Below are positions 8,202 through 55,978 of a DNA stretch of 64,000 nt, one piece after another (position 1 is the stretch's first letter; every line of letters begins with the position of its first letter). The stretch is taken from contig CM119264.1 of NCBI GenBank assembly GCA_051294375.1, forward strand, positions 13,784,813-13,848,812, written 5' to 3'. Below the pieces are notes generated by a model. It searched no databases. It saw only the letters and a program-made list of their open reading frames with translations, and was not told where the DNA came from. This stretch comes from Paraspadella gotoi. Its lineage: Eukaryota > Animalia > Chaetognatha. The position numbers and the translations under genes are program-made.

Positions 8202-8312
8202 AGAAAGATAAAGAAAGAAAGAGAGAAGTGTAAAGATAAATATATATATATATATATATATGAAATTGGTACAACCAATATAAAAAATTATCCATTCATT
8301 TAATAAATAAGC

Positions 8313-8370
8313 TATCTTGCCCCTGACTTTGGACAGGCTTTGGTGGGGCCTCCATCACCTCTTACAAATA
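8313..8370 (-). ncRNA. Twister ribozyme, family A, defective copy (cleavage-site UAA deleted)
   Basis: Same as 8634-8696 but the + strand TTTAA is missing and there are small indels. Confidence 0.6.
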
Positions 8371-8633
8371 ATGACATAGCAGGTCCCTGCAAGCTTTCAA
8401 TCAAGACTCTCTCACAGTCTCGTTTATTCACTCCCAGAGTACCTGGCCTTCCCTATCAATGAAGTGGAAAATATTTCAAAGAATGTTTCAATTGTATGAA
8501 AAGACCACTCCCTTAAGTATTAGATCGGGGAATACTTATTGTACTCCGCACTAGCATCAAAATACAAGGAGCTGAATTTTATGAAATTGGTAACAACCAA
8601 TATAAAAATTATCCATTCATTTAATAAATTAGC

Positions 8634-8696
8634 TATCTTGCCCCTGACTTTGGACAGGCTTTGGTGGTTTAAGGCCTCCATCACTCTTACAAGATA
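8634..8696 (-). ncRNA. Twister ribozyme (P5-type), family A, intact
   Basis: UAUCUUGU AA GAGU GA UGG AGGCCU U^AA ACC AC CAAAG CCU G U CCA AA GU C AGG G GCAAGAUA. P5 8 bp, P4 CCUG/CAGG, T1 CCA/UGG, T2 AC/GU, catalytic GA and UAA all in twister order. Predicted cut at 8671^8670. Confidence 0.85.
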
Positions 8697-8960
8697 ATGA
8701 CATAGCAGGTCCCTGCAAGCTTTCAATCAAGACTCTCTCACAGTCTCGTTTATTCACTCCCAGAGTACCTGGCTTCCCTATCAATGAAGTGGAAAATATT
8801 TCAAAGAATGTTTCAATTGTATGAAAAGACCACTCCCTTAAGTATTAGATCGGGGAATACTTATTGTACTCCGCACTAGCATCAAAATACAAGGAGCTGA
8901 ATTTTATGAAATTGGTACAAACCAATATAAAAATTATCCATTCATTTAATAAATAAAGCT

Positions 8961-9025
8961 TATCTTGCCCCTGACTTTGGACAGGCTTTGGTGGTTTTAA
9001 AGGCCTCCATCACTCTTACAAGATA
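8961..9025 (-). ncRNA. Twister ribozyme, family A, third unit
   Basis: Identical core with one extra U and one extra A around the cleavage site (possibly homopolymer read error). Confidence 0.75.
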
Positions 9026-9727
9026 ATGACATAGCAGGTCCTATTGTATTTTGAATATAAAGTTCAAAGTTTATGCAAAAGAGTTAAGATCCGACGACGG
9101 CGATAAAGGCGACAAGGAGGACTCAAACAATCAGGTTTGGGTCTCCTCAGGGTAAGTCGACGCGAGGTGAGTTAACGAGGCGCTATTTTTGGTAGGGATT
9201 CTGTGCGTGCCTTCCGAGGCGTCTCTATCGAAGAAAGGAGGAAAAGTGCGAAGAGGAAGAATAAGTGAGAGACGAAAGAAAAATAACGAGCAGGGGTTGA
9301 ATTGGGTAAGTGTCTCCTTTAAAAGCCGGGCGGGCGGATCGCGTCTAAACGGCGGCCCGTCATGGGATAAGTGCCCTTCCAACTCGGGTCGGAGATGAAG
9401 GGCTCTTTCTTCTTCTTTTTTCTCTTGTGTCGCTAACTCGATTTCCGACGACACAGAGAAACATTGACACAAAATGTGAGATAGGAAATACCGAAAAAAT
9501 ATTTTTTCCATTAAACATTAGAAAGTTTTGGAAATCTCATGGAATAGATAGTCCCGAGCAGGATAATATTTCGATAACATTTAATTAACACTTAATTAAC
9601 TCTTAAATGCACAAAATAGAGACTTTTCCATTATAGTAATTTGACGGAGTAAATTCATCCCTTATCAAAAACCACTGAGTTACATCTGCGCTTCTTTTAT
9701 TCATACGTCACCATACCATATGTTAAC

Positions 9728-9909
9728 CAAACAAACAAAAATTCGAGGTTTTCTTTCATTCTTTCTCAAATAATAAAATAGATAAATATTGTGATAATCT
9801 GTCAAGTCTCCTCCGTGTGAATGGAGAATCTTTTCCTTTTTATGAAATTAAAAAATCGAGGAACGTGAAAGTCTTATTTCTGTTCATCGGTTTTTATTGC
9901 TCCATAGAA

Positions 9910-9997
<88 letters not shown>

Positions 9998-10124
9998 CTC
10001 TCTATTTATCAAAAGCTCAACTTTTCCTTCTTCTTCATGCATTCCTATTTCACGCAACTTTTTGCGTTTCTTTTCTTCTCCTTTTCTCATGCGTTTTCCT
10101 CTCTCGTTAAAAATATCTTTTCTC

Positions 10125-10188
<64 letters not shown>

Positions 10189-11903
10189 TTCTCTCTCTCT
10201 CCTCCATCTTTTTTCATATTCTTTTCAACTGATTTATTCATCTCCTTCTTTTCTTTTTTTTTCGTTATTTTTCTAAAACGAAACCGAATATTTTTTTTCC
10301 TTCTTTAGTGTAATCCCGAGTTCTTCTTCCTTTTTATCGGGAGCATTTATTTTTTTCCTTTNNNNNNNNNNNNNNNNNNNNNNNNNCACATATGTTTCAG
10401 TCTGAATATTAGAAAATTTTTTCGTTGACGCTCGATAATGACCAATGCTTCCTTTCACAGTCTTTCACTGTTGAGAAATCCTCTCTCCGATTTTCTTTCC
10501 TCGTTTCAATCTCTTCTAAATTCGTTTTGATCAACGCCAAGACGAACATGGACGTTCTATGCGCCACAAAAAGAAATATCAGTTTTCAACTCTGATTAAA
10601 CATTAAATGACATTTGATTTGAATTCAAGCCTGGGACGGGAAAAAGAGAATGGTTTATCTCAAGTGTTTCGTTAATAATTTGGTTTGTTTTATTCATTAT
10701 ACTATTTTCTTTTTTCTTTAAACTGTATCTCTTCAGTTTTCCACTCTCCTAAGTTTAGCCAAAGTTTTCTCCAATTTTTCTTTTTTTTACTTCAACTATC
10801 CTCAGTTTTCCTCTCATTTTTCTTCTCCCTTATTTTGTTACGCTCCACTCTTTTCATTATCACTTTTTGTTCTTCTTCGCCATCCTCTTGCCCCGATGTT
10901 CAACTTTCTCCTTCGTTCTGCCCCACTTCCTCCCTTCACGTCCATCTTTCAAATCTGCTCATTATCGAGGGTTGATGTGCGGCATTTTCGCGCGAGAATT
11001 TAAAATGGGCGCGCCTCACGACGGTCTTTGTATCGGAAACAGCGGTAACCATGAAACGGGGAGTATAAAGTTAGGGAAGAATAGGAGCGAAGAGGAAGAG
11101 GAGGGAACAAAAAATTGAAGGAAGAAGTAGAATTAGATTGGAGGAAAGAGAAATAAAAATAAGATAGAAAACACGAACTTCCGATAAAAGAATTAGTAGA
11201 TGTTATTCAAGTGATAATTAAAAAACAATAAACACAATTATGCCATCGTCCTTGGTACTTGATCAATACCATTTACTTTTGAAATAAACAAACAAAAAAA
11301 ATTCGAGGTTTCTGTCATTCTTTTCTAAAAATAATAAAATAAGATAAATATTGTATAATCTGTCAAGTCTCCTCCGTGTGAATGAGAAATCTTTTTCTTT
11401 TTAGAAATTAAAAAATCGAGAACGTGAAAGTCTTATTCGTTCATCGGTTTTTATTGCTCCATAGAATCTCTCTCTTCTCTCGTCTCTCTCTCTTCTCTCT
11501 CTTCTCCTCTCTCTCTCTCTCTTCCTCTCTCTCTCTCTCTCTCTCTATTATATACTATTATCAAAAGCTCAACTTTTCCTTCTTCTTCATAGCATTCCTA
11601 TTCCACGCAACTTTTTGCGTTTCTTTTTCTTCTCCTTTTCTCATGCGTTTTCTCCTCTCGTTAAAATATCTTTTTTCTTCCTTCTTCCTCCTCTCTCTCT
11701 CTCTCTCTTCTCTTCTCTCCTCTCTCTCTCTCTCTCCTCTCTCTCCTTACATCTTTTTCACTATTCTTTTCAACTGATCTTTTATCATCTTCCTCTTTTT
11801 CTTTTTTATTCTAAAACGAAACCGATATTTCTTTTTTCTTCTTGAGTGTAATCCGGAGTTCTTCTTCCCTTTCATACGGAGCAATTCTGATTCTTTTTTT
11901 CCT
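9728..11903. repeat. Direct duplication 9728-10361 / 11287-11903 next to the N-gap at 10362-10386
   Basis: Colinear near-identical text with many homopolymer indels. Probably haplotype or assembly redundancy. Confidence 0.8.
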
Positions 11904-12840
11904 TTATAATTTCAAATGTTTATTAAGACGATTAAAACGGTTTAGATTGGAAGAAGTTAGATATCTAGCTCTCCCTCGGCATCGCTCCTCTCACTCTCAA
12001 GTACACCATTATTTGCGAGTTTTATTGGCCGATTGCCAGCTTATCATTAATATAAATTTTTTTTTGCTTTGATACCTAAATTCAGCTATTTTCTTTTCAG
12101 GAAGAATCAGTCCTCGACTCTACAACTCGTAACGGTCGTGTTCACCTATTTGTTTTCTATTAATTTTTGTTGGTCAGCAAAGAATGATAAGGCGATCGAG
12201 CGGATAGTTCAGTTAACAACACAAGAATCTAAGGTTATCATGCCTGTGAGCACTTTCATCACGGAGAAAAATCAATAATCGCGTGAATAGATGCGTAAGC
12301 AAAACACGATATTCCCGCGTCTCAGATTATCGCGTGTGACAAATCTTAAAGTAATATTCGAGTGGGAGCGTAAAAGCGTGGGAAAAAAATGGGCTAAAGG
12401 ACGTTAGAAGGGCTTTCACCTCTTTGTGGCTATAATTTCAATGAGTCAAAATCGTCTGGCTCAACTATATTCTTATCCCATTCTCTGTCCTCATTGTCAT
12501 TAGTATACGTACATTATTACGGATCCTCAAACTCACATCATCAGGTAGTTTTAACGGCCTTCAACTGCTTTTTTGCCAACGTGCATACCGAATTCAAATT
12601 TTTCTCTCTCCTTTTATAAACTCATATCGTGTATTTCTCTCTGACTGAGGCTCTTAACTGTACGCCGATTAGCCCTTAAACATTTTCTCGACTTGGACTC
12701 AATCAAATTTCAAAACGAATTTGTGTCCATCCTTTAAAAAACGAGAAATATCGTTAGATAATGTCATAGCAGAGAAGAGAGAAAGAGTAGAGGGAGAGAA
12801 GAAGAAAGAGAATAATCTCAATGAGGCGAGAGCCGATATT

Positions 12841-15813
12841 TTTAGTCGGGATTGCTTATTCAGCAGTATCTCTCGACTCTATAATCCACTTTCTTATAAA
12901 CTCACTTTTTCCTGGTCCGATCGTCCGCCCCTCAAGCTATTGTTGCCCGGGCACACACTTATATCATGTCAGAACATTCGAATTATGAATAAATTAGTGC
13001 AAAAAAATGATGTCGTGCCGTCCGTCCGTCTGTCGTGTCCGTCCGTCCGTACGTCCGGTCGGTCCGTCCCACCTAGCAAAAACACCAATCTACTCGTGAT
13101 TGGATGGAATGGAATTCTAAATGAAATTTTGTGTGTGGATAGGCTAACGTGGTGTGATGAGCCTGGATATTAAGTTTCGATGGAATCGTCCGATGGAAAT
13201 GAGGTTTTAAATGGGAAAACAAAAAAAAAATATAGTTCACTATTTGAACATCCTAATTCTCATGGAGTGGTTATGGGGCTGATTGGACCCATGGATTTTA
13301 ATGTGGGTAGGAAAGTGGTGTGATTTGCAACATGGAAGTAGTTTCGATGGAATAGTTTAGATGGATAATGAGTTTCAATGGAAAAAAGCAAAAGATAGCC
13401 TGTTTAACTAATTGAGTTATGCTTATCTTGTTTCCTTTTTATATTATTAAATGTATCTGCAAGGATGTATAAATAAATCAATATAATTAATCAGTAATTT
13501 AATCAATTAGTAAATAAATTAATCATAATTATTAATTTAGTCAATCAATCCGTTCCATCCGTCCATCTTAGCAAAAAGCCCAATAATCTCGTGATTGGCT
13601 GGTTGGAATTGGAATTAAATTTTGTGTGTGGGTAGGAAGTGTGTAGATAAAGCTGGATATAAAATTCTCGATGGATATCGTTGTGAGGTGGAAATTAGTT
13701 TAAATGGAAAAACATAAGTCGAATTTACTAAAAATCTTTTTAACTTATGTTTAACCAATAAAAACTGCCATTAATTCAGTAATTGGATGGATAATTGAGT
13801 TGAAATTTTCTGTGTGGGTAGGAAACGTATTGACGAACGTTGATATAAAGTTTCAGTGGAAACGTACCAAGTGGAAATGATTTTAAATGAAAAAAATATG
13901 AGTCACATTTACTTGAATCTTTTTATTTATTTTTAACCCATGAATAGATTGAGATGACAATTTTGTGAGTCCGTAAGGAAAAGTGAGTGAGAAGCTGATA
14001 TAGGAAGGTTTTGACGGAATGCCAGAGTTGAAAAAATGACTGCAAAGTTGAAAAAATGATGCAAGTTAAAAAAATCTTAAAGCATAAGGATCGTTGCTAT
14101 TGCATAAAAGAGAGAGACGAAGAGAGAGACATAGAGAGAGTGAGAGAGAGAGAGAGAGATGAGAGAAGAGAAGTAGAGGAATGTGAGGGAGAGAGGAGGA
14201 GGGGAGAGAAGGAGACATAAAATAAAAAAATCTGTAGAAAGACTCAAGATCGAGCCAGAGCCCACTATCATAGAAATGTAATGAAAAACCGGGAAAAAAG
14301 AACGAATAATCGAATTGCGATAATAACGAATTGTTGAATGTACTAGTAATTGATTGAGGTACAACTAATTGATTGAGTGGTAATAGTAATTTTAATGATG
14401 TAATAGGAATTGATTATTGATTCGCATGAATAATCAATTATTGATGCGATGATAGTCAGTTCAAACTGCTGTGATGATGAGTCATGTCAGTGATCGCGAT
14501 GATTGTCATTCATGATCGAGTGATTGTCATTCATGTGATGCGATGAATAGTCCAATAAAAACACAAATCGTGTAATGATGAAAGAGAAGAGATGAGAGAG
14601 AAGAGAGAGAGAGAGAAGAGATGGAAGAGAGAGAGAGTAGGAGAGTAGAGAGAGAGAAAGGAAAGAAAGAGAAGTTAGAGATGAAGGGCGAAACAAGAGA
14701 CACGTCAACGGGAAAAGTCTCGCGATGAAATATATGGGATTTTTGTATTGAAAAGACGAAGCGCGGAATAAATGGCAATTAATAAAAAGTTTTTTGCAAG
14801 GAAGAAAATAATACAGAATTTTTAAAAACAAACGATCACGAAATGAAAAGATCGACAGATAGGGACAGAACACACACAGAGAGACAGAGAGACAGAGAGA
14901 GACGAGAAGAAAAAAGAGAAGAGAGAGAGAGAGAAGACAGCCGCTGCGAAGAAAGAAAAAGAGAAAGAGGCGATATATAATCAATTAAAAAGAGAGAAAG
15001 CCTAGCAGCCCGCTTTACCTCGTTAAGAATGCAGCAGTAACTTGATGGCAGCCGCACGTAGCGGAGCTATTCTCTACCGAAAGGACCCTGGTTGCGCGCC
15101 CTGTTCGCGGCATTCGTTGTTTACATTAGTGGAAGCCCACATGTTGAATCTAAAAAATTTTTTCTGTAAAAGAAAAAGAGGAGAGAGAGAGAGAGAGGAG
15201 AAGAGAGAGAGAGAGAAAGAAGCTGGACAGTATCGCTGCGAGCGGAACCGTTTTTTAAGAAGAAGCAAGGACGGAGGAAGAAGAGAGAGAGAGAGAGAGC
15301 TGACATATAAATTAAATAGTTTTTGTTTTTGATAAATAGAACAGTAAACAAACATACGCAAATATTGATATGAAACACTGAGAATTTTAAAGATCTGATG
15401 ATTAGAAGCCATGAGGTATGAAAGTTCAACCCCTATGATAGTATACAACTTTCGAAGCATGTTGCAAGAAAAAGGAGCGAGGACCGAAAGCTAAACATAA
15501 AAATTCTAGAAGACAGGCGGGCTTTGCCTACCCTGCTCGATTAAATGAGGATATTTGTTTGTTTTGATTAAAATGTAAACAAAACATTTATAACTGCTCC
15601 TGACTCAATTTTATAAGGAACATCGATGATGGACAAGCTGAATATTAAATTATAATTAATCTATTATATTAATAATTAATTATTATTAATTAATAAATTA
15701 TTTAAAATATTATAAATCTATTATTAATTAAAATTAATCTTATTAATAATATAATAATTAATTAATTATCGTAGGCAGATTCCGTATCTATTTGTTTCTG
15801 CTAAACTGCTGTT
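12841..15813 (+). mobile_element. Non-autonomous Helentron/HINE (DINE-1-like) insertion, possibly composite
   Basis: Absent from the duplicate (empty T-run at 18519-18525), no TSD. 5' hairpin AGTCGGGA..TCTCGACT, inverted subterminal motif CAGCAGT/ACTGCTG, (GTCC)n tract at 13012-13070, degenerate ~165-190 bp internal repeats at 13.1-14.0 kb, 3' hairpin GCAGA..TCTGC. Confidence 0.7.
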
Positions 15814-15844
15814 TCTTTCTTTCTCGTCCAAAAGTAGGAACAAA

Positions 15845-15914
15845 ATGGTTCATCGCCCGGAAGGGGAGAGGCCAGGGTTGTTAACCCAGATTTTTGGTGC
15901 CAATAGAGACAGGG
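15845..15914 (+). CDS. Possible first coding exon (MVHRPEGERPGLLTQIFGANRDR), gene unassigned
   Basis: AAAATGG start context after a pyrimidine tract and AG, strong G|GTAAGT donor. The duplicate at ~18553-18621 has a 1-nt deletion. Confidence 0.3.
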
Positions 15915-16322
15915 GTAAGTGAGACTGAAACTGGGAAGGGAATAATGGGATAGAAAATAAGAGAAACTAACTGAAGTGGTTAAGCTCACTAACGAACGAA
16001 CTAAAATTAAAAGTGAATAAAAATCTGTTAAACACGCTAACGCATCTGTCTAACCCAGCTAACATGTGTCACACTATTTCTTATTTCCGCCACAACTAAT
16101 TAATCATAACTAATTAAGCTTTAAAATTTGAGCCAAGAAACAACTATTTTATTAGTACTGATTGAAAAAAAAAGAAACACATAATGGAGAATTGACATAA
16201 ATGACTTGGATTCGGTTGCCGGTGTCGGATGTGGATTGTCGGCTATCGATTTAGAAATCCGCCACCAGCTGATTATCTTCATTTCCCAGACTCGCGACTG
16301 ACATGACACACTCTCCTCTTTC

Positions 16323-16395
<73 letters not shown>

Positions 16396-16463
16396 GATAT
16401 CAAGGCGTCATAAAACCTTCTCGCCTATCAAAAGACATCCTTTAAAACCAATTTCCATCAATG

Positions 16464-16520
<57 letters not shown>

Positions 16521-19033
16521 CCCCTTCCACATCCATTTTCATTTAAACAAAGAAACCCTTTCTGTCTTCCAAACTGTATTTTCTCTTCGACTCGATCTTA
16601 ATTTCCTTTTCAATTTTCTCGCATTTTCTCCACATGGATTTCACGCTCAATATTTCGATCCATTCTTTTAAAACCCTTTCATTGTCTATGTATATATCAT
16701 TGGTAGCTCATTACCTCAATAACGCATTGGTTTTAACTAAAAATTCGTTCCGATGTCTCCCATAGTTTCTTTCTCCTTCTTCCTTCCTCCTCCTTTCAAC
16801 CTCTTTTTTTATTGCCTCTCGAAATATGAGTCGTTTTTCGTTTTGCATATTTTACAACGCTTTTTCGGTTTTCCCTCTGATTTAAAAATCTTGTTTTCGG
16901 TATTCGCGAAGACGAGGGGAGGCCAGGCGGTCGAAGGCCTTCATTGGTTTCCTTTTTTTTCTTAGATCGACACTGACGTTTGGAATTCGCCTCAGACTTT
17001 CATGAGTCGTAGAAAATCCGCAATTAATGTAATTTTTTTTTCCGGAGAAAATAAATCCGTCCTGATAAAAAAGTTGACCGGAAGAAATCAAACTAAATCA
17101 TGAACACACAAGGGCCGCGATAGAAGTAGGTTGTTGAAAATTGAAGGAACTGAAAAAAAAAACTCAATATGACATTTATTGGCTTAGATTCCGAGCGAAT
17201 AAAAATTAATGGGAGGATTTTAAGAATGAGATTTTTTTTCCTCGACGGAATGAAAATTCCACTGACACAATTTCTCAGTGACAAGTTTTACTGTTAGTTC
17301 CGACCTCATTTTCATCTCCTCCTCCTCCTCCTCCTCCTCCTCTCCCTTTTCTTATCCTCTTCTTCTCTCTCAGTTTCACCTCAAAAAGTACTTCATCCTT
17401 TCTACTCAGATCGCCTCATGGTAATCCTCTCTAATTCTTTCTCATTTTAATCTCTTTTAATCTCGAGGTTATGAATCATTTTTCTTCCTTCGAGTCGCGC
17501 TTTGACCCTCAGACTGAAAGACGGAAGAACGTCGAGGAAAAATGATTAAAAAAAAAAAGAGAAAAAGGATAATGGGAAAGACAAACGAATTGTGGTCTTG
17601 TTCTTCTTAAATGACCCTCTCGGACAGGCTAGCATGGACGAAGAGGATGTTATCTGTATATTGAAAGACGAGACTCCACTTGGCAATTTCATATATTTCA
17701 ATGTTTATATAGACGATTAAACGATTAGATTGAAAGTTAGTATCTAGCTCTCCCTCGCTCTCTCACTCTCAGACACTTATTCGCGAGTTTTATGGCGATT
17801 CCACTATCATTATATATTTTTTTTTGCTTTGATCCTTAAATTAAGCCTATTTTCTCAGGAAGAATCAGTCTCGACCTCAACTCTACTCGTTTCCCTTTTG
17901 TTTCTTAATTTTTGGTCACAAAAATAAGGCGATCGAGCGAAGTTAGTTAACCAAGAATCTAAGGTTATCCCTGTGAGCCTTTTCATCGAGAGAAATAATC
18001 AATCGCGTGAATATCGAAAGCAAAACCGATATTCCGTCTCAGATATCGCGTGTGAAAAATCTTTAAAGAATATCGAGTGCGGAGCGTAAAAGCGTGGGGA
18101 AAATGGCTAAAGATTAAAGAGGGCTTTCCCCTTTTGTGGTCTATAATTTCATAGTCAAAAATCTCATGGTCTCACTATATCTTCCCTTCTGTCCTCCATT
18201 GTCATTAGTATACGTACATTTATTACGGACCTCAAACCACAACCATTCAGTAGTTTAACCCTTCACTGCTTTTTGCCAACTCAACCGAAATTCAATTTTT
18301 CTCTCCTTTTTAACCATTCGTTATTTTCTCTGACTGAAGGCTCTTAACTGTACGCCGATTTAGCCTTAAACATTTCTCGACTTGGACTCAATCAAATTTC
18401 AAAACGAATTTGTTATCCTTTAAAACGAGAAAATCGTTAGAACATTCATAGACAGAAAGAGAGAAAGAGAGAGGGAGAGAAAGAGAAAGAGAATAATCTC
18501 AATGAGGCGAGAGCCATATTTTTTTCTTTCTCGTCCAAAAAGTAGGACAAAAATGGTTCATCGCCCGGAAGGGGAGAGGCCAGGGTTGTTAACCCAGATT
18601 TTGGTGCCAATAGAGACAGGGGTAAGTGAGACTGAAACTGGAAGGGAATAATGGGATAGAAAATAAGAGAAAACTAACTGAAGTGGTTAAGCTCACTAAC
18701 GAACGAACTAAATTTAAAAGTGAATAAAAATCTGTTAAACACGCTAACGCATCTGTCTAACCCAGCTAACATGTGTCACACACTATTTCTTATTTCCGCC
18801 ACAACTAATTAATCATAACTAATTAAGCTTTAAAATTATGAGCCAAGAAACAACTATTTATTAGTACTGATGAAAAAAAAAAAGAAACACATAATGGAGA
18901 ATTGACATAAATGACTTGGATTCGGTTGCCGGGTGTCGGATGTGGATTGTCGGCTATCGATTTAAGAAATACCGCGCCCAACCAGCTGATTATCTTCATT
19001 TCCCAGACTCGCGACTGACATGACACACTCTCT

Positions 19034-19116
<83 letters not shown>

Positions 19117-19185
19117 GATATCAAGCGTCATAAAACCTTCCTCGCCTATCAAGAAGACATCCTTTAAAACCAATTTCCATCAATG

Positions 19186-19239
<54 letters not shown>

Positions 19240-20918
19240 CCTTCCACATCCATTTTCATTTAAACAAAGAAACCCTTTCTGTCTTCCAAACTGTATTTTT
19301 CTCTTCGACTCGATCTTAATTTCCTTTTCAATTTTTCTCCATTTTCCTCCACATAGATTTCACGCTCAATATTTCGATCCATTCTTTTAAACCCTTTCAT
19401 TGTCTATGTATATATCATTGGTAGCTCATTACCTCATAACGCATTGGTTTTAACTAAAAATTCGTTCCGATGTCTCCCATTTAGTTTCTTTCTCCTTCTT
19501 CCTTCCTCCCTCCTTTCAACCTCTTTATTTTATTGCCTCTCGAAATATGAGTCGTTTTTCGTTTTGCATATTTTACAACGCTTTTTCGGTTTTTCCCTCT
19601 GATTTAAAAATCGTGTTTTCGGTATTCGGAAGACGAGGGGAGGCCAGGCGAGTCGAGGCCTTCATTGGTTTCCTTTTTTTTCTTAGATCGACACTGACGT
19701 TTGGAATTCGCCTCAGACTTTCATGAGTCGCAGAAAATCCGCAATTAATGTAATTTTTTTTTCCGGAGAAAATAAATCCGTCCTGATAAAAAAGTTGACC
19801 GGAAGAAAATCAAACTAAATCATGAACACACAAGGGCCGCGATAGAAGTAGGTTGTTGAAAATTGAAGGAACTGAAAAAAAAACTCAATATGACATTTCA
19901 TTGGCTTAGATTCCGAGCGAATAAAAATTAATGGGAGGATTTTAAGAATGAGATTTTTTTTCCTCGACGGAAATGAAAATTCCACTGACACAATTTCTCA
20001 GTGACAAGTTTTACTGTTAGTTCCGACCTCATTTTCATCCTCCTCCTCCTCCTCCTCCTCCTCCTCTCCCTTTTCTTATCCTCTTCTTCTCTCTCAGTTT
20101 CACCTCAAAAAGTCTTCATCTTTCTACTCAGATCGCCTCATGTAATCCTCTCTAATCTCTTTCTCATTTTAATCTCTTTTAATTCTCGAGTTAATGAATC
20201 ATTTTTCTTCCTTCCGAGTCGCTTTGACCCTCAGACTGAAAGGACGGGAAGACGTCGAGGAAAAATGATTAAAAAAAAAAAAGAGAAAAAGGATAATGGG
20301 AAAGACAAACGAATTGTGGTCTTGTTCTTCTTTAAAATGACGCCTCCTCGGACAGCTTAGATGGACGAAAGAGGATTATCTGTATAGAATACAACAACTT
20401 GGCAATAAAAAACTCTACAAACTTTTGTTGAGCTTCGAATTCTTTCAATTTTTTCTTCCTGTTTTTAAGATCTTATCGAATCGAAGAATAGGAAAGTAAC
20501 GTTTGAGCGAAAGAAAGTTTAGCATCCGGTGATGACGGATAAAAACAACAAACGATGTTATTTGAAGAGAGAGAAAGAGAGTGTGTGTGTGTGAGTGTGT
20601 AAAACTCCAACCCCTCACGATATGTGAGAAGTTGGGAGAGTCAACGAGGCTTTGGCAAGCGAAGAGAAAAAATATGGAAATAGAAAGAAGAAAAAAGAAA
20701 TCGGAAACGGATCTCATTTTTGGCGAAGAGATGTCGATGTAGATGTTCCGCCTCGAGAAGGATTTTCGATTCCGGTTTTCATCCTTGGCTTCATCCGGTT
20801 CCATTTCTGGTTCCATCCTTTATCCCACAATCTTGTCTCAAGGTTTTCCCCCTTCTTTTGGTTACTCCTTCGAGACTTTAAAACCGATACTTTAATCCGG
20901 AACGTTGATGATATTATG

Positions 20919-21029
<111 letters not shown>

Positions 21030-21378
21030 AATCGGTGGTCGCCTTGAGTTTTCGCAAAGGGTAAAGGTTTTCTCCAAGTCACGTGATGTAAACAAAAAAC
21101 AGAAGGGGCGCCTTTATCGCTTCCATTAAAACAAAAGCAAATCTTTTTCGACCTCACGTTTCCCCTTTTCGTTTCGGTTCCTCATTACGAAACTTTTTTC
21201 AGGTTTCGAGTTCATTTTTTTCTTCTTACAAATAGGTTTGTGATTGACCGTAAAAGACGATAAATGAATCATGGAGTTAACGTTATTATGTATGCAACAG
21301 ATAAGAGAGAGTGAATTAAATTTCACCGGGGTATTACCGGAGAACAATAGAGTATTCACGATCTCATACTTACATTTG

Positions 21379-21804
21379 TTGAAATATTATATCACTTCAT
21401 TAATATGGAAGCCAGGTACTTAAACAACCAAAGCCTGTCCAAAGTCAGGGGCAAGATAGCTTAATTATTAAATGAATGGATAATTTTTATATTGGTTGTA
21501 TGTACCAATTTCATGAAATTCAGCTCCTTGTATTTTGATGCTGGGCGGAGTACAATATAGTATTTCCCGATCTAATACTTAAGGGAGTGGTCTTTTCATA
21601 CAATTGAAACATTCTTTGAAATAATATATCACTTCATTGATAGGGAAGCCAGGTACTCTGGGAGTGAATAAACGAATCTTGATTGAAAGCTTGCAAGGAT
21701 CTGCAATGTCATTATCTTGTAAGAGTGATGGAGGCCTTAAACCACCAAAGCCTGTCCAAAATCAGGTGCAAGATAACTTATTTATTAAATGAATGGATAA
21801 TTTT
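21379..21804 (+). mobile_element. Family A repeat, ~1.3 units, opposite orientation to the 8.3 kb array
   Basis: Reverse-complement match to the 8581-8905 unit with substitutions and indels. Confidence 0.85.
21713..21775 (+). ncRNA. Twister ribozyme, family A (T2 partner GU mutated to AU)
   Basis: TATCTTGT AA GAGT GA TGG AGGCCT T^AA ACC AC CAAAG CCT G T CCA AA AT C AGG T GCAAGATA. Predicted cut at 21738^21739. Confidence 0.75.
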
Positions 21805-21853
21805 GTTTATTTAAAATTCCTGTTTCTAATTTTATTTATAAACTTTAAGGTAC

Positions 21854-22090
21854 TGTAGTCGGGCATTGCCTAGGTTTATCCCGCCTATAAGCATGACACT
21901 TTCAGTTGTGACCCGGTGGCTCATTGAGTAATGAGTAATGAGTAATGAGTAAAGCTATCAGCTCATTACCACTAGATACCGGGAAGCGTGAGGACGGCTG
22001 TAAGCCGCCTTGGGAGTGTGGCAAACCCTCAAGCCTGGTTCCAAGCCCAGGACCCGTTCCATGGCTGCTAGAGGGGGTTATAGAAGTTCT
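21854..22090 (+). mobile_element. Family B: tRNA-derived SINE-like element with internal twister, copy 1 (B-box region deleted)
   Basis: Colinear with 24809-25035. A-box-like TGGCTCATTGAG at 21917 and a local (TGAGTAA)x4 expansion. Confidence 0.7.
21980..22056 (+). ncRNA. Twister ribozyme (P5-type with P3), family B copy 1
   Basis: CGGG AA GCGT GA GGA CGGCTG T^AA GCC GC [P3 CTTGGG..CTCAAG] CCTG G T TCC AA GC C CAGG A CCCG. T1 TCC/GGA, T2 GC/GC. Predicted cut at 22001^22002. Confidence 0.75.
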
Positions 22091-22618
22091 TGATAATCAT
22101 CTTCAGCCCAGATAGCGCCTTATCCGCAGTATTTTTTTCTTTCCGCCCTTTCATCATCGCGCGCTTCACCTTAACACCCAACGCGCTTTGGAGAATGACG
22201 GTGAAACCTTCTATTTTTCCGCCTTTTCCTTTTTTTCTCCTTTTTTTTTTCTTTTCTTCATCTTCTCTTCCCTCCTTGCCCTTCTCAATGACGGCGGAAA
22301 GGCAAAAAAGGAAGGCGTGTCCTTCTACAGTCAGAGAGACGCGAGTTTTATTGCTTGTTCCTTGTGAAGACAGTTTTAGCGATCGAGCGGAGGTCGGGAG
22401 CTTCAGTGATATGTCGATATGACGAGAAAAACTCGAACAATAAAAAGTGCATCAAATCGCGAGAGACCATGAACTCGGTGCTAATCGTTTCCGAACTCAC
22501 TAAGTTTTTTTTTTTTTTTTGATTGAGGAAACAGGCGAAATAATACACAGTATTCGTCATAAAGATATTTTTTGGTCATTGCAGTCTTTTAATAACCGTA
22601 GGAAAGACCCTCTTCTCT

Positions 22619-24808: not shown

Positions 24809-25035
24809 TGTAGTCGGGCATGCATATGCATAAGTTCACCCCTTCAGACGTGATCCCCTGGCTCCTCGAGTAAAGCCATGACCACTAGGTACCGGGTTCA
24901 ATCCCAACCCGGTACCTACCCTGCGGAAAGCGTGAGGACGGCCGTAAATCCCCTTGGGTGTCTAGAAAACCCCCAAGCCTGGTTCCAAGCACAGTACCCG
25001 TTCCATGGCTGCTCGAGTGGTTAAAGAAGTTGCGC
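24809..25035 (+). mobile_element. Family B SINE-like element, copy 2
   Basis: A-box-like TGGCTCCTCGAG (24859), B-box GGTTCAATCCC (24895-24905), shared 5' TGTAGTCGGGCAT and 3' CCCGTTCCATGGCTGCT. Confidence 0.7.
24923..25001 (+). ncRNA. Twister ribozyme, family B copy 2, degenerate
   Basis: GCGT GA GGA CGGCCG T^AA ATC CC [CTTGGG..CCCAAG] CCTG G T TCC AA GC A CAG. T2 and the G-C pair closing L4 are mutated. Confidence 0.6.
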
Positions 25036-25145
25036 TGATGAATCCAGAGAAAAAAAATTATGTACAGTTTAACTTTAAAGATATTTTTTCCCCTGGTTGC
25101 TTTGGATTTCTTTGTTAAAAGATGGACCCATTTTTTAATTTTCCT

Positions 25146-28929: not shown

Positions 28930-30476
28930 TTCTTAATCTGTCGATATAAATAAGACGAAAATGACGAGGACTGCGACGACGACGACGATCAAGATGACGA
29001 AGACCGCGACGACAACGACGACGACAAAGATGACATCTCGTCCTCTCGCTACATCCGATTTCGAGCAAATCAACTGGGTAGACGAAAATGGAAACGAGGC
29101 TGAAGTGAGAGGGAGGGCAATTACTTGGAACTGACAGACAATGATAGAGCAATGATATCGAAGTGACAAGACAATGATTACAGTGGCGACGATGACAAAA
29201 TCATAACGAATCGTACTATTAAATGTTATCAATTTGTTTAAAAATAAGGTTGGATTAATGTCGCGTTGTTGCTTCACTGTCGAAAGCTAATTCACAAGTG
29301 TTTTAATTTCACTTTGCTACTCGTTCTCTTTTTTTTTGGGTTCGAACTCTTTCCAAACTTTTTTCTTTTTTTTTTCTTTTTTTCTTTTTTTCCCTTTTCC
29401 TTTTTTTCCCCTTTTTTTTCTTTTGGCCCAAAAGTTTTTCCGACGTCACATTAACGTCGCCATTTCCTTTGATGTCCTTTTCGCTTTCCGAGTCTCGAGT
29501 TGGCGGAGACGAAGCCAGAAAACCGAAAAGGCGGAAGGGACTCCATCAAACGATAACAAACGTCAACGACGACAACATCAAGACGATTGGAGAAAGGAAG
29601 ACGACGACTTTTAGAAAACGAGAAAAATCTATCTCTCCAGCAATTTAATCTTTCTGTCAATCTACTTTATCTATTGATCGATTGATTGATTGATTGATGT
29701 TTGATTGATTGATTGATTGATTTTTTTATTTAATTTGATTGTTTGTTTATTTATATATCGCAGTCTATCAAACAAAACAGTTTTAGGTTAGCAGGTTAAA
29801 TGACAACGTTATATTTTCTAAATACAATTGCCATCGACTAAGAAATACTAATATAGCAAAACGAATTTCTTTCTAACAAGTCACAATCGGTTGAATAAAA
29901 CATTAACGAGAAACATCCTCGTTCGAACTCAAACGGAGTTCCCTTCTTAATGAAAGCAAATCGTCTTCTTGGAACAGAAGATAAAAAAGGAATAATAGGA
30001 GAAAATAAATAAGAAAAAGTAGAGAAATCGAAGAAGACAACGACTGAGATTAAGAGGAGAAAGATGAAGTGGATCAGCGAGAGAAGAAGAAAATGAAAAG
30101 AATACATATGTAGTTTTTTTTTGGAATTTAAAATATGATTTCAACTTGATTCTAATAAAAGAAAAAAATTAAAGAAATGTAAACATCAATTTATTTATAA
30201 ACATACTTCAGTTATTGATTAATTGATAATATAATTTCCTTTCTTTTTCGTTGCGTTAATTGATATATTTATTGTTTGATCGATACTTTCTATCATTTTC
30301 TACTTTAATACTATTACTTCTTTAAAAAAATAATATCGCGAGAAAAATGCAGGAGGTATTGAAGAAATTAGCGGAGGCACCAAATAATTCGGTATTCTGA
30401 CACAAATGATTATGCAAGTTTTTTCGAGCACTTGATGATTCTTGATCGTAGTTAAAACAACAATTCTTTGCACGAG

Positions 30477-30554
<78 letters not shown>

Positions 30555-33488
30555 ACTCTCTCGTGCCCAGCTCGTTCTCTCTCGTTCTCTAACTCGCTCT
30601 CTCATCTCCATGGCAATATTTGTGACGCACGTAGAGAGAAATACCAAAACCAAATTCTCTCTGATTTCATCCCAGTTTTTTTTTTTTTTTTTTTTTTTTG
30701 AAGCACGTAAACTTTTCGGTTAACGGACTACGATCTAAAACACTGCAAATTTTCTTTTTTTCGTATGATGCTACAGTTTCTGGACTTTCGAGATGTAAAA
30801 TTTAAGGTAAATAATTTTTTTTTTTCAACTACAAGCACTTGTAAAACTGATAATACTGATAGATTTTACTTTGGTGCATTGAATATTCTATCTATCCTGA
30901 AAAGTGTATAATTATTTTTGATGTACCCTATTTGAGCTCTGACCAATCTGAGTAGTCAAAGGTAAGGCGCTTTGAGCGTCTTTAAAGTAGGTCAGCGACC
31001 GACTTTCGATTGATACCATACTTCATATGTGGAGATTGANNNNNNNNNNNNNNNNNNNNNNNNNTCTTAGATCTGGTCGATATAAATAAGAACGAAATGA
31101 CGAGGATGCGACGACGACGACGATCAGATGACGAAGACGCCGACGACAGACAACCGACAAAGATGACATCTCGTCCTCTCGACTACATCCGATTTCGAGC
31201 AAATAAGGGGGTAGACGAAAATGGAAACGAGGCTGAAGAGAGGAGAGAGGCCAATTACTTGGAACTGACAGACAATGAATAGAGCAATGATATCGAAGTG
31301 ACAAGACAATGATTACAGTGGCGACGATGACAAAATCATAAAGATCGTACTATTAAATATTATCAATATGTTTAAAAATAAGTTGGATTAATGTCGCGTT
31401 GTTGCTTCACTATCGAAAGCTAATCACAAGTGTTTAAATTTCATTTGCTACTCGTTCTCTCTTTTTTTCTTGGTTCGACATCTTCCAAACTTTTTCTTTC
31501 TTTTTTTTTCCTTTTTTCTTTTTTTTCCTTTTCCTTTTTTCCCCTTTTTTTTTTTGTTGCCCAAAAGTTTTTCCGACGTCAACTTAACGTCGCCATTTCC
31601 TTTGATGTCTTTTTCGCTTTTCGAGTCTCGAGTTGGCGGAGACGAAGCCAGAAAACGAAAAGGCGGAAGGGACTCCATCAAAACGATAACAAACGTCAAC
31701 GACGACAACATCAAGACGATTGGAAGAAAGGAAGACGACGACTTTTAGAAAACGAGTAAAATCTATCTCTCCAGCAATTTAATCTTTCTATCATACTACT
31801 TTATCTATTGATCGATTGATTGATTGATTGATTGATGTTTGATTGATTGATTGATTGATTGATTATTTTTTATTTAATTTGATTGTTTGTTTATTTATAT
31901 ATCGCAGTCTATCAAACAAAACAGTTTTAGGTTAGCAGGTTAAATGACAACGTTATATTTTCTAAATACAATTGCCATCGACTAAGAAATACTAATATAG
32001 CAAAAGAATTTCTTCTAACAAGTCACAATCGGTTGAATAAAACATTAACGAGAAACATCTCGTTCGAACTCAAACGGAGTTCCCTTCTTAAGGGGACCCA
32101 GTGATAAAAATGATATCATAAGCTTAAGGGTCTATCATCAAAGGAATTTGAATGGTGATAGTCATTAATTTTTCTTTGCACGGGAAAGTGGCAAAAAAAT
32201 TCCTATCTCTTAATGTAGCGGAAACAAAAATTTTATAATATTGAAAAAAAATTTAGTTGATACTACCTCACTAATATATATATATAATCCATTATTTTTT
32301 TGCATTGAAAGTATTTTTTACTAAATTCCAATTTTTTATTTTTTTACTGTACAAAGCTATAATTTTAGGTTTAAGCCTCATTGAACAAAGGCTTTACAAG
32401 ACTAATATTTTTATATTTTTATATTTACTTAAAAGCAGACAAATCAAACCTAAATTCTATTCTTTACAGAAACAAAACTGTAATAATTATTAATTAATAT
32501 TCATATTCATCCCTTAAATGTATAATTAAACTATATTGATTCCTAATTATAACAATTAAAAATTAGCAAAAGTACAGAATCTTTCTCTTCTTTTTATATT
32601 TATATTACTTCAAAGAGTTTTATTTTCATCCAATTAACGAATCATTTGAAAGAAGTTAAATAAAATCAGTCGATACCAACTTAATTTGTTCATTCCTAGT
32701 TTTTTTTCTTATAAATTTTTGTGATAAAAGCTGAAAATCTTTTTAAAATTAGATCTTACCCTTTTTTTGGAAAAAAAAATTTTAAACTTGAAAAAGATTT
32801 TCTTCTTACCGATTTTTAAAGAAAATTAAGCTCGCTGATTTTATCGAATTTTTTTAACTACTTTCCCAAATGATTATAGAAGAAAAAATTATATGATCAG
32901 AACCAGCTTAAGTTAAAGGGTCAAACGTTATGTTTTCAGCTTTTTACCCCCCTGTTCACTTGGTCCCTCTTATGAAGCAAATCGTCTTCTTGAACAGAAG
33001 ATAAAAAAGGAATAATAGGAGAAAATAAATAAAGAAAAAGTAGAGAAATCGAAGAAGACAACGACTGAGATTAAGAGGAGAAGAATGAAGTGGATCAGGC
33101 GAAGAAGAAAGAAAATGAAGAATACATATGTAGTTGTTTTTTGGAATTTAAAATATGATTTCAACTTGATTCTAATAAAGAAAAAATTAAAGAAATGTAA
33201 ACATCAATTTATTTATAACTTACTTCAGTTATTGATTAATTGATAATATAATTTCCTTTCTTTTTCGTTGCGTTAATTAATATATTTATTGTTGATCGAT
33301 ACTTTCTATCATTTTTCTATTTATACTATTACTTCTCTTTAAAAAAAAAATATCTGAGAAAATCAGGTATTGGGAAGAATTAGCGAGCACCAAATAATTC
33401 GGTATTCTGACACAAATGATTATGCAAGTTTTTTCGAGCACTTGATGAATTCTTGATCGTAATTAAAACAAACAATTCTTTGCACGAG

Positions 33489-33549
<61 letters not shown>

Positions 33550-34034
33550 TTCTTACTCTCTCGTGCCCAGCTCGTTCTCTCGTTCTCTAACTCGCTCTCT
33601 CATCTCCATGGCAATATTTGTGACGCACGTAGAGAGAAATACGAAACCAAATTCTCTCTGATTTCATCCCAGTTTTTTTTTTTTTTTTTTTTTTTGAAAG
33701 CACGTAAACTTTTCGGTTAACGGACTACGATCTAAAACACTGCAAATTCTCTTTTTTTTCGTATGATGCTACAGTTTCTGGACTTTCGAGATGTAAAATT
33801 TAAGGTAAATAATTTTTTTTTCAACTACAAGCACTTGTAAAACTGATAATACTGATGATTTTCTTTGGTGCATTGAATACTTCTATCTATCCTGAAAGGT
33901 GTATAAATTATTTTTGATGTACCCCTATTGAGCTCTGACCAATCTGAGTAGTCAAAGGTAAGGCGCTTTGAGCGTCTTTAAAGTAGGTCAGCGACCGACT
34001 TTCGACATGTACCATACTTCATATGTGGAGATTG
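28930..34034. repeat. Direct duplication 28930-31039 / 31065-34034 across the N-gap at 31040-31064
   Basis: Colinear near-identical sequence. The second copy has an 878-bp insertion. Confidence 0.85.
32092..32969. mobile_element. Non-autonomous TIR transposon (MITE) in a TTAA site, Kolobok-like
   Basis: Empty site CCCTTCTTAATGAAAGC at 29941. Filled site TTAA|GGGGACCCAGTGA ... TCACTTGGTCCCTC|TTA. Purine-start termini with a TTAA target fit Kolobok better than piggyBac. AT-rich interior with no transposase. Confidence 0.75.
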
Positions 34035-34047
34035 AAAGATGGAGATT

Positions 34048-36967: not shown

Positions 36968-37248
36968 GTAAATGGGTAAATGGGTAAATGGTAAATGGGT
37001 AAATGGGTAAATGGAAGGGCTTATAAGGAATAAATGGAATCAATAGATTTAATACCGAGGATAATGCTTGGATTTGGCGGCACGCGGGAAATGGGGAGAA
37101 AGGATAGAATGGATTCGGTCGCGGGGGAAAAAGGTTGGATGAGAATGGAGAAGAAAAAGGAGAGAGAATGGCGATATACGAGTTTTGGGATGGGGAGTAG
37201 AATCCAGGCCCTCCTCAGAGAAAGAGAGAGAGATAGAAGAGAGAGAGA

Positions 37249-37298
<50 letters not shown>

Positions 37299-39333: not shown

Positions 39334-39418
<85 letters not shown>

Positions 39419-42064: not shown

Positions 42065-42162
<98 letters not shown>

Positions 42163-42416
42163 CCTCTTTTCTTTCCACCCTGCAGCGAAAATCATAAATG
42201 GGAAAAGCAATTTTGCGGTCGACGTCGAAGCTTTGAAAGACGTCGAAGGAAAAGATCTTCCAGTCGAGCGAAACGAAGATGAAACCAATTACAGAATCTT
42301 TTTTCATGACGCGTGAATATTGCACAAAACAATTTCAATCTCTCTTTCTCTATTTCTCTCTCTATCTTTCTTCTTCCCTCCTTCTGTAACTCCCACTGCC
42401 TTTCTCTCTTCTTCCT
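36968..42416. repeat. Direct duplication 36968-39687 / 39815-42416 between N-gaps
   Basis: Colinear near-identical sequence, both copies starting in (AAATGGGT)n. Confidence 0.85.
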
Positions 42417-44003: not shown

Positions 44004-44479
44004 GGGAGCAAACCCGCGGTTTTAATCTTTGCCATCTGAATCGAACGTCGCGTCGTTACGACGTCTCAGTTTCGTCGTCGTCATCGTCGGCTTCGTCGTC
44101 GTCATCGTCGTCGTATTCGCTTCTTGATATCAAACTGAGCCCAAAACCCATATTTCCTCACCCCATCGCCTTTTCTTTTCTTCCTCATTCGATAGCGATT
44201 ACTTCCCGCCGTCGCGAAATTCTGAGAGGAAACTTCTCTCTCTCTCTCTCGCGACGCAACCCCACTCTCTCCCGAGCAGATAGAATCTAATCGGGCGCTT
44301 CCTTCTCGCGACTTCTCAATGTCTTCGATCCGGAGGATCTTTAATTCCAATCACGTGACTAACTCGTTATTCTTAATCAAACGATGGATCGACGAATCGG
44401 ATCCCTGACTTGATATCCCCTTTCACTCGCTTTCTTTTATTTTTTCTTTTTATCGGTTTATATTTCTTCTATTTTTCAG

Positions 44480-44585
44480 ACGTACGGACTAAGAAGTAAG
44501 AAAAAACCCGGGGTCATCACGGACTACACTTACGTTGACTACGTCGAGATCAGCAGTCCGGCGTTCAAGGCCGGAATGAGGGCAG
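44480..44585 (+). CDS. GRASP: GRASP/tamalin-CYTIP-like protein, PDZ exon (TYGLRSKKKPGVITDYTYVDYVEISSPAFKAGMRAG)
   Basis: TTTCAG acceptor. TYGL...V..SPA..AG..GD pattern of the GRASP/CYTIP PDZ domain. Phase 1 donor matches the next exon. Confidence 0.85.
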
Positions 44586-45320: not shown

Positions 45321-45559
45321 GTTCATTAAAACCCCTTTCAAAAAGTTTTATTTGGTTTTAAAAACGAATATCAAGTTTCGGATAAAAATATTACTCTACG
45401 ATATTTAGCCAAAGAAAAAAGGCAGAAATATCATTTTCACTTTCCTTTCTATTTATTCCTCATTTTTCCCTTCCTTCCCTTTATTTTCATACCCCCTTGT
45501 TTTTTCTTTCTTCCGCTTTTTCCTTTCTTTCCATTATTTTTCCCTTTATCCTCCGCCAG

Positions 45560-54207: not shown

Positions 54208-55978
54208 TCAAGATAAACTCTTCTTTTTAGATTCCACCCATGACTTGATTTTGTCGTTGGCCAAGACATGGTCATGCACCGCCATCCACTTTTCCGGAAA
54301 TTCCATTTTGGATGCCACGCCTTCCTTCATCAGGATGCTATAAAAATAATGTATAGATACATTTATTTATTATGTCTTTGTCTTCATACAATCATCACCT
54401 AGACTCGAACTATGACTATGCATATGTAAAATAGTTTATTGAATTTTATAACAAATAATCTTACGTCATGTCGAAAATGACCAAATCCGCGAGCGAAATT
54501 CCCGAACTCAAAACGAAGTCTCCTTCGATCCATTGTTCAACTTTTTTCATAATTTTCGGTAATTCCTATAAAATAATAAATATAGGACTAAATTTTGCCT
54601 TAATATATGTATATTCTTATACCTATAAAGAATGACGGAAATATTCTTATTATTAACTGACATGTAAATCGAACCATGTATAATGAATATAGAAAATATT
54701 AAACTTTAAAAAATCCAACACTTTAAAAGGAGAAGAGAAAATCTTGAATATTCCCTCAGAGTAAATAAATATTTCGCTGTTCTCTTTCGGAGTTTTCTTT
54801 ACCCTAACGAAAAATCGTAGAAAGTTGGGAGAGGTCTCAAATTAAAGCTTATGAAATTGGTACAACCAATATTATGCTTTGTATATAATGATAGGCAAAT
54901 AAATATTTAAATTTACAGCTTATTCACTAAAACACTAAAAAAAATCCTGCTTTGATCGTGTTTTGCTGACATACCCACATTGAGAGTATTAAGAGTATAC
55001 TATAAGATTTTATAGTTTTCAAAAATAGCACTTTTTGTTTCTTTCACATCATCTCTGCCCTACCGTGCGGAATCAAGCGTTTTTACATCTATTTTCTACC
55101 GAAATTATAAAGTTTGATAGCCCGATTTGAACGAAATTCTAAATTGAAAAAAATATTTTTCGATTTCTAACAAATACGTCGACTAAAAGATAGCTTATTT
55201 ATTAAATGAATGGATAATTTTTATATTGGTTGTACCAATTTCATAAAATATTAGCCCTTGTTCCCGGACAGAAATTCATTGAAATGACTAAACTTTACAC
55301 TTCATATCTACACTTACAATGACCAAATTTTTTTCTATTTCCGACTTCTTTGCTTCATCAGTTTCATAATACCATTGAATCATTTTTCCCGCGATATCGA
55401 GCCAAACTGTGTCTTGAACCATGTCCACTTTTAGATTCTGAATAAAAAAATGGTTCAGTTCTGGAGTAATTAACTTTTTTAATATATATCCGTTTTTAAA
55501 TAGGCGGTTTTTCCTACAAAGAAAATCATCCAAAATAGGGGAACATTTCATTATCCCGCTCCCTTTCACCTCCATTTCGTCCTTTCCAAAAAATCCGAAC
55601 TTCTTCGCCAAATGTCGCGCCAACGACGATTGCTGACAATACTTGACCCCGTCGATCTCCAGAACAGGCATTTGTCCCAGCGGCATCCCGGATTTCGCGG
55701 CGTCGTCCCACAACAAAGTTCCAGAACTAAAATCGCAGATATATATTACTTATTAAACCGCGCTTATTATTCAACAATTTATTAGGTTTAGAGAAAGACT
55801 CACATTTAAAAGGTAGCAACAACGCTTCATCATTTCTCCCATCAATCTTTTCAGCCTCTCACCGTTCTTCTTTAGCGTATCTCACATCTTCGAATGGCTC
55901 TCCCGCCAGAGTAAAGAGGAGTCGAATCAACTCGCCCTTTCCCGCCAGGTCAAAGTAGTGCAGCTTGTAAGACGGCAT
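54208..55978 (-). CDS. Glutathione S-transferase, sigma-like, 207 aa; exons 55978-55863, 55726-55570, 55437-55318, 54565-54465, 54337-54208
   Basis: MPSYKLHYFDLAGKGELIRLLF..GEPFEDVR, MPLGQMPVLEIDG, ISLADLVIFD. All introns GT-AG and in frame (phases 2,0,0,2). Confidence 0.92.
55187..55249 (+). mobile_element. 3' fragment of family A repeat in a GST intron (shorter inverted fragment at 54849-54872)
   Basis: About 60 nt match to the family A unit downstream of the twister P5 strand. Confidence 0.75.

Follow-up and report, generated by a model that had tools for sequence, protein, structure and literature searches.

A tandem repeat on the minus strand of this 64-kb stretch of DNA (the window) appears to carry a twister ribozyme where the non-LTR retrozymes of other animals carry a hammerhead. 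The repeat, at 8260..9041, is a non-coding insertion of 2.4 units, with a fixed 3′ end at 8260 set against a (TA)n run and a truncated 5′ end at 9041. On the evidence of its letters, no core element of a type-P5 twister is missing from unit 2 of this array, and the family's ribozyme is very probably functional in self-cleavage. The insertion is likely a twister-bearing non-LTR retrozyme that is also a non-autonomous element of the Penelope type. A first-pass annotation of this DNA had proposed a retrozyme architecture based on twister: the twister in the hammerhead's place holds up, but it is not intact in every unit.

The tandem array and its predicted ribozyme

TRF places the array at 8259-9041, with a period of 325, 2.4 copies and 96% matches. 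The units follow one another on the minus strand: unit 1 at 8260-8580 (321 bp); unit 2 at 8581..8905 (325 bp, or ~324 if the base at 8592, absent from most mapped contigs, is counted as extra); and a partial unit 3 at 8906-9041. Together, TRF and these coordinates confirm the earlier description of head-to-tail, non-coding units of 321-325 bp. With a GC content of 37.5% and a longest stop-free stretch of 71 aa, the unit is a non-coding tandem of low GC, within the range of 170-400 nt and without LTR/PBS/PPT organisation. The hammerhead core CUGANGA is found on neither strand of the array, even with 1 mismatch. Four inverted repeats had been named in the unit; all of them exist, but folding favours only AGACU/AGUCU (p 1.0) and UUGGU/ACCAA (p 0.8), and not AAGUAUU/AAUACUU (0.07) or GCAGG/CCUGC (0).

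The family is a high-copy one, with many dispersed copies and oligomers. BLAST finds four loci in the window, and the unit is matched by 21739 of 7042937 contigs in run X2 and by 7204 of 969560 in run X1. One or two contigs each from organisms B, C and D and from a marine metagenome also match the unit, and may be contamination. Pattern scans returned no match in the metagenome contigs, and none in viral contigs for the terminus of this family or for the second family described below. A looser scan of the viral contigs gave nine loci, none of which passes the twister descriptor; these were treated as chance.

The twister of unit 2 (8634..8696, minus strand) was parsed against the published consensus and Rfam. 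P5 has 7 bp; P2 has 3 bp with one bulge (8685); and P4 has 4 bp, with a G-C pair adjoining L4. The GA element is at 8682-8681, including the catalytic G, and the U/A/A residues of L4 are present. Both pseudoknots can form (T1, UGG/CCA; T2, AC/GU), and every pair in P2, T1, T2 and P4 is Watson-Crick. P1 is reduced to the palindrome AGGCCU (8677-8672), which can form only 1 bp plus a tetraloop, or else pair between molecules. By the twister consensus, as given in the available part of PMC5408937, the predicted scissile bond is U8671^A8670 (8670..8671, minus strand), in the context U^AA.

The motif thus resembles the type-P5 model RF02684 in strand order, GA, U^AA, both pseudoknots, the G-C pair of P4 adjoining L4, and P5 as the open stem; it differs in its 6-nt palindromic P1, the short and bulged P2, the AC/GU form of T2, and a score below the gathering threshold. 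That model expects a long P1. RF02684 matches 8643-8685 (minus strand) with 25.8 bits (E 0.0046 when 901 bp are searched, 0.32 for the full window) and 8970-9014 (minus strand) with 19.6 bits; at the gathering threshold (37.6 bits for RF02684), Rfam has no match in the window. A strict twister descriptor, devised after the motifs had been seen, matches two loci in the window, as against five matches in 300 shuffled windows, none of which has two. The stub of P1 and the bulged P2 fit a working ribozyme, because tested twisters tolerate the loss of P1 and bulges in P2; they do not tolerate changes in the pseudoknots or catalytic residues (PMC11662667, whose tests, in the part available, concern type P1 only). 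The consensus, too, has P1 as conserved but dispensable (PMC5408937).

The other two units are damaged. Unit 3 (8961..9025, minus strand) has a U and an A too many around its predicted cut, 8999^8998. These bases are absent from some reads in the mapped contigs and so may be errors of assembly or changes private to this copy; the broken pairs in the automatic parse of this unit arise solely from the extra A not being skipped. Unit 1 retains a remnant (8313..8370, minus strand) from which the cut site (TTAAA) is deleted, and which is predicted to be dead. The first-pass annotation had the cut positions right, 8671^8670 and 8999^8998, on the twister parse; its count of one twister per unit does not stand, only one of the three units being intact.

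If the fold matters, copies of the family should vary less within it, and this is what the contigs show. Unit 2 served as the reference for the run X2 contigs (the same 21739 of 7042937), and all counts that follow concern the best-supported 40 of 137 variants in the well-covered zone 8605-8780, with 8630 dropped (an error or a private base of the window) and two sites that appeared twice merged; frequencies come from summed contig depth, which is not copy count. Variants fall at 2 of 52 constrained positions and at 29 of 124 others (p 0.0008), and those of at least 5% at 0 of 52 and 15 of 124. The contrast persists among G/C positions alone (2 of 25 constrained, 18 of 49 other), after removal of CpG positions and those past 8762 (2/52 vs 21/104, p 0.004), and within the span of the ribozyme, where the comparison is with linker or bulge positions (2/52 vs 3/11, p 0.03). 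The two variants above 10% in that span lie in the P2 bulge (8685) and in a linker (8641). Both changes in T1, each at about 3%, are C>U and keep a wobble pair (all among the best 40 of 137). The first-pass annotation had named pairings no better conserved than the rest of the unit as grounds for rejecting its proposal; ribozyme positions in fact vary less than the remainder. By this pattern of variation, the ribozyme is under selection.

A second repeat family contains a type-P5 twister of its own, at 21979..22056 (plus strand), with a P1 of CGGCUG, a predicted cut at 22001^22002, and a P3; this is the other descriptor locus in the window (21990). Another copy at 24924..25000 (plus strand) has a P1 of CGGCCG and decayed T2 and P4. 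Outside the ribozyme the two families have no similarity. Within it, family 2 shares with family 1 the bulged P2 and a 6-nt P1 of the NGGCCN type, so that a palindrome or near-palindrome occupies the P1 position, adjoining the cut, in both. Compensatory pairs distinguish the families at two of the three T1 pairs and one of the two T2 pairs, and also in P4; these counts were not taken from the MAFFT alignment of six twisters, in which P3 is misregistered. The two ribozymes may share an ancestor, and the family comparison counts as one comparison, not many.

As repeats, the family-2 copies (21855-22100 and 24809-25040, both plus strand) have a common start, TGTAGTCGGG, and their likeness extends ~86 nt beyond the predicted cut. 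In the 24.9k copy, the loop of an 11-bp hairpin resembles a tRNA B box, and a long stem encloses the ribozyme.

These observations bear on the simplest alternative: a DNA-level satellite, or a tandem repeat derived from a Helitron, whose likeness to a twister is chance or the relic of a dead ribozyme. The sub-threshold Rfam scores and the single intact unit of three would suit such a repeat. It is nevertheless highly improbable: variants are depleted at paired and catalytic positions, a second family has compensatory pairs, and only five descriptor matches occur in 300 shuffles. Moreover, Helitron ends carry the motif TC...CTRR, and this repeat ends without it.

Ends, copies and the machinery of insertion

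The family has one preferred end, which, like the palindromic P1, had escaped the first-pass annotation. When contigs are mapped to a two-unit junction, 38 X9 and 21 X1 contigs exit at 8580/8581 into non-matching, TA-rich flanks; the next largest exit comprises 6 contigs, among the 13 listed (518 more exist). With a single unit as the reference, exits at this end number 365+65+66 (X2), 59 (X9) and 1 (X16), tandem junctions and tails included. Exits of 122 and 57 contigs near 8792-8795, among the 17 listed (724 more exist), continue as unit-like sequence, and are read as a subfamily indel. X9, X12 and X16 are possibly RNA runs, but their contigs carry no information on transcription; along the unit, the summed depth of X9 declines as in DNA, and this poor measure plays no part in the argument.

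In the sense of the twister, this end is 3′. It falls 90 nt downstream of the predicted cut, right after a terminal hairpin (8581..8601, minus strand; UUGGU/ACCAA) with an AC-rich 3′ arm. Contig ends at 8580/8581, the folding probability of 0.8 and analogy with the anole element of PMC11167929 make this hairpin a candidate internal start for reverse transcription. The same 3′ end recurs in three of the four loci in the window, once with a tail, whereas the 5′ ends differ in all four.

Besides the array, BLAST bears out the presence of dispersed copies in the window that the first-pass annotation had noted. The longest, at 21338-21811 (plus strand), is an older copy of ~1.3 units with internal deletions and no canonical 3′ end; its twister (21713-21775) has a broken T2 pair, and at a junction within it (21419-21420) sequence equivalent to ~8764 is joined to within 2 nt of the cut site. 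A 5′-truncated copy at 55187..55261 (plus strand) runs past the fixed end, with a 16-17-nt "tail" (55245-55261) like the start of the next unit; its score is equalled by 1 in 20000 random 17-mers of the window. This tail, the one example in the window, is shorter than the 30-40 bp described for Penelope-like elements. The third copy, 23 bp at 54850..54872 (minus strand), consists of the fixed 3′ end only, and lies 315 bp from the second in inverted orientation. One joint between opposite strands is among those listed in each contig mapping. Around the 23-bp fragment (54845-54877), the 5-nt direct repeat TTATG flanks it and overlaps its end, inside an AAAGC/GCTTT inverted pair; in this single case, the repeat may be a duplicated target site that extends over the terminus of the element.

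No (TA)n separates adjoining units, and the tail enters the next unit; therefore the RNA would not end at the fixed end, and initiation would be internal. In their fixed 3′ end, variable 5′ ends, AT-rich flanks and single tail, the copies match the footprint of internal initiation left by Penelope-like elements, whose traits include 5′ truncation, partial tandems, tails and (TA)n targets (Craig et al. 2021, PMC8557442, in the part available). Non-autonomous head-to-tail families of such elements, for example MRC1, are described in the same source. That Penelope-type machinery mobilised this family is, on these marks, probable.

The closest parallels are the anole Poseidon element PAc (Frangieh et al. 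2024, PMC11167929) and the Naiad/Chlamys elements (PMC8557442). As far as the available parts of these sources describe them, they are alike in fixed 3′ end, 5′ truncation, partial tandems and optional tail; in AT-rich or (TA)n targets; and in an AC-rich hairpin ~90 nt past the ribozyme cut. They carry a hammerhead; the present family has a twister and no ORF. In the anole element, reverse transcription initiates in an AC-rich stem-loop at +111-118 and the hammerhead cuts at +26, 85-92 nt apart (PMC11167929). The match with the 90 nt seen here is striking, as an analogy with one characterised element.

We also considered whether Naiads use twisters in place of hammerheads. Of the 54 Naiad consensi, 8 were read by eye over their final ~450-500 nt and have no twister there; six short motifs of family 1 gave no match either, so this idea was set aside. 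Several Naiad 3′ ends (in the part of the PMC8557442 supplement available) have a GAAA(C) half before a CUGAUGA/CUGACGA half, the parts of a hammerhead in swapped order.

LINEs, too, leave copies with a fixed 3′ end and truncated 5′ ends. The unit might instead be a SINE that depends on an RTE, L2 or CR1 LINE, finishes at its 3′ side in a stem-loop and (TA)n, and has a twister, like RTE elements. Twisters do head the RTE element Perere-3 (PMC8501958, in the part available), and according to an unpublished remark they are conserved at RTE 5′ ends. Perere-3, however, begins at the cut and its target site makes P1, whereas here the permutation is P5 and the cut internal, with no loose ends at the cut among the exits listed. 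There is no (TA)n between units, the tail enters the next unit, and neither pol III A nor B boxes were found on the twister (minus) strand of the unit. A SINE of this kind is quite improbable.

The enzyme that would perform the insertion is presumably encoded elsewhere. The window has 428 ORFs of at least 60 aa; among the 150 longest of the 161 that are not of low complexity, none matches an RT or a GIY-YIG domain. One 2153-nt X9 contig (depth 115) matches 8622-8766 at its end, exits at 8766, and continues for ~2 kb unlike the unit. An X12 contig exits at 8762, and its letters there agree with the variants found in X2 at 8764, 8766 and 8767. The breakpoint at 8762-8766 recurs: in X2, a subfamily of ~10% has the twister module and differs upstream of it, and the junction of the 21.4k copy leads from this spot to the cut. 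It seems, from these cases, that a 3′ module of ~180 nt is common to elements with different upstream sequence, one of which may be autonomous.

With such a partner another reading comes into view: a longer, autonomous, twister-bearing Penelope-like element would have the unit as its terminal pseudo-LTR, and the short arrays would be fragments of that element, amplified locally or truncated. The ~2 kb beyond 8766 and the apparent module boundary at 8762 fit this reading, as does the derivation of hammerhead retrozymes from pLTRs by Li et al. (2026, 10.64898/2026.07.22.740005, in the part available). But the long contig could equally be host sequence joined to a truncated copy; the array here has 2.4 units between unique host flanks; no RT/EN was found among the 150 ORFs scanned; and no twister was seen in the eight Naiad 3′ ends. 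The first-pass annotation had itself allowed that the unit might be just the terminal repeat of a larger element. The unique flanks exclude this at the present locus, while at the level of the family the 2153-nt contig leaves room for it; overall we regard it as improbable.

Template and palindromic P1

No loose contig ends occur at the cut (8670/8671) among the exits listed, and there is no step in depth there (the X2 bins around it hold 4.77, 4.76 and 4.66 million). Priming at +90 on a cleaved linear monomer would yield copies of just 90 nt that stop at the cut; the template was therefore apparently continuous across it, and we infer either a circle, an uncleaved multimer or a jump between templates. 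Circles and tandems look alike in contigs.

The preferred scheme, of a non-autonomous retrozyme, would run as follows. A read-through transcript of at least two units would cut itself at every twister, and tandems would be cut better than solo copies because adjacent units would pair through their P1 palindromes. A host ligase would join the ends of the resulting monomer, a 5′-OH and a cyclic phosphate, to make a circle. An RT/GIY-YIG protein of the Penelope type, encoded elsewhere, would nick AT-rich DNA, and reverse transcription would start at the AC-rich hairpin ~90 nt downstream of the cut and proceed round the circle. Early stops would leave 5′-truncated pieces, and longer runs would leave arrays such as the 2.4-mer. 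As a whole (a conserved P5 twister with Penelope-like copying into AT-rich DNA, probably from a circularised unit of ~324 nt), this scheme seems to us to have an even chance of being right.

For the circle in particular, the case by analogy is close to evenly balanced, if not slightly short of that. It is favoured because hammerhead retrozymes of like architecture make circles, selection appears to act on the ribozyme, and in folding only 1 of 100 shuffles does as well as the circularised unit (z -2.25). The P5 permutation splits the ribozyme across the cut; like a type I hammerhead, it would then be heritable only from a template that is tandem or circular.

A circle is not required, however, because unprocessed RNA is the main template of the one Penelope-like element tested in vitro, that of the anole, which inserts without ribozyme cleavage (PMC11167929, in the part available). 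The family might accordingly be a Penelope-type element with a working twister that is copied from an uncleaved linear multimer, or by template jumping, with no circle at all; the ribozyme would trim 5′ ends or act late. This explains the fixed end, the tail and the continuity across the cut equally well. The junction of the 21.4k copy, within 2 nt of the cut, is what a jump from a cleaved 5′ end would leave. Nor is the twister fold the predicted ground state, a point that also counts against the fold itself: nearest-neighbour folding, which is blind to pseudoknots, does not favour the P2/P4 core, gives P4 a probability of 0.05-0.07 in monomer or circle, and puts the 71-nt twister core at a z of about -0.5. 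Against this stand the folding of the circularised unit and the accumulation of similarly built hammerhead retrozymes as circles in coral, mussel and axolotl. We consider the linear template rather unlikely, though with the anole result it is a near competitor of the circle.

The palindrome may offer a reason for tandem units to matter. In the natural transcript of unit 3 followed by unit 2, the palindromes of the two units pair with a probability of 0.99-1.0, whereas the closing pair within a single unit has a probability of 0. Axolotl and Penelope hammerheads likewise have a one-pair stem with a palindromic tetraloop beside the cut, and cleave as dimers; the weak helix of the axolotl HHR_Amex1 (1 bp plus a palindromic tetraloop), as given in the available source, is mirrored by P1 here. 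Dimer-dependent cleavage is suggested by this model, but only tentatively. A palindrome need not mean dimers: tested twisters can do without P1, and any palindrome that recurs in tandem units will pair between them. The cross-unit pairing establishes no more than that dimers are feasible, and this twister, too, may just have no need of P1. In its strongest form, the idea would be that a twister makes small circular RNAs, works as a strand-swapped dimer through a hammerhead-like palindromic stub, and is copied back by a Penelope-like element with twister-bearing ends, a design used by at least two families. That all of this holds together is doubtful.

Relation to known elements, and genomic surroundings

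Metazoan non-LTR retrozymes (PMC7229834; 10.64898/2026.07.22.740005), in the parts of these sources available, are alike in their non-coding tandem units of 170-400 nt with GC below 45%; in a self-cleaving motif split by the cut, one per unit in their case; in occurring as dispersed monomers and oligomers; and in a suspected Penelope origin. They have a type I hammerhead, however, and the family described here has a predicted type-P5 twister. It would work like a metazoan non-LTR retrozyme, yet by the published definition, under which a type I hammerhead is obligatory, it is not one.

Twisters themselves have been found in an animal retroelement, as T-variants in Perere-3 (RTE) of Schistosoma mansoni (Liu et al. 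2021, PMC8501958). As far as that source goes, Perere-3 is an autonomous LINE with its 5′ end at the cut and P1 supplied by the target site; here the cut is internal and the unit tandem and non-coding. Twister circles are known from viroid-like RNAs (PMC12542633, in the part available). The literature at hand, in the parts available, describes neither a twister-based genomic retrozyme nor a twister with a palindromic P1, and an earlier listing is possible in twister surveys (Roth et al. 2014, CHiTA).

Published animal retrozymes and Penelope pseudo-LTRs are defined by their hammerheads, and genome searches use hammerhead descriptors (10.64898/2026.07.22.740005, in the part available). Families with a variant twister would be missed twice: by such descriptors, and by their sub-threshold Rfam scores. 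If cleavage proves true, the retrozyme life cycle would be independent of ribozyme class, and eukaryotic type-P5 twisters would gain a role. The family is also a candidate for a natural dimer-gated twister. Finally, the spacing of 90 nt from cut to end, held in common with the hammerhead-bearing anole element, makes reverse transcription of retrozymes directly testable.

The window is animal-like DNA, with exons of sigma-class GST and PDZ proteins. Two sigma-class glutathione S-transferase genes lie in tandem on the minus strand, at 55288-56002 and 58246-59166, and the repeat fragment at 55187-55261 is just downstream of the exons of the first. On the plus strand, 44414-45831 holds exons of a PDZ-domain protein, which may resemble the GRASP/cytohesin scaffolds. 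Its PDZ match (Pfam PF00595) is just under the cut-off. The window also contains local duplications of 0.6-2.8 kb with 80-95% identity (9724-12843, 15812-20386, 28931-34035 and 36976-42412), three of them across 25-N gaps; these may reflect haplotype or assembly duplication.
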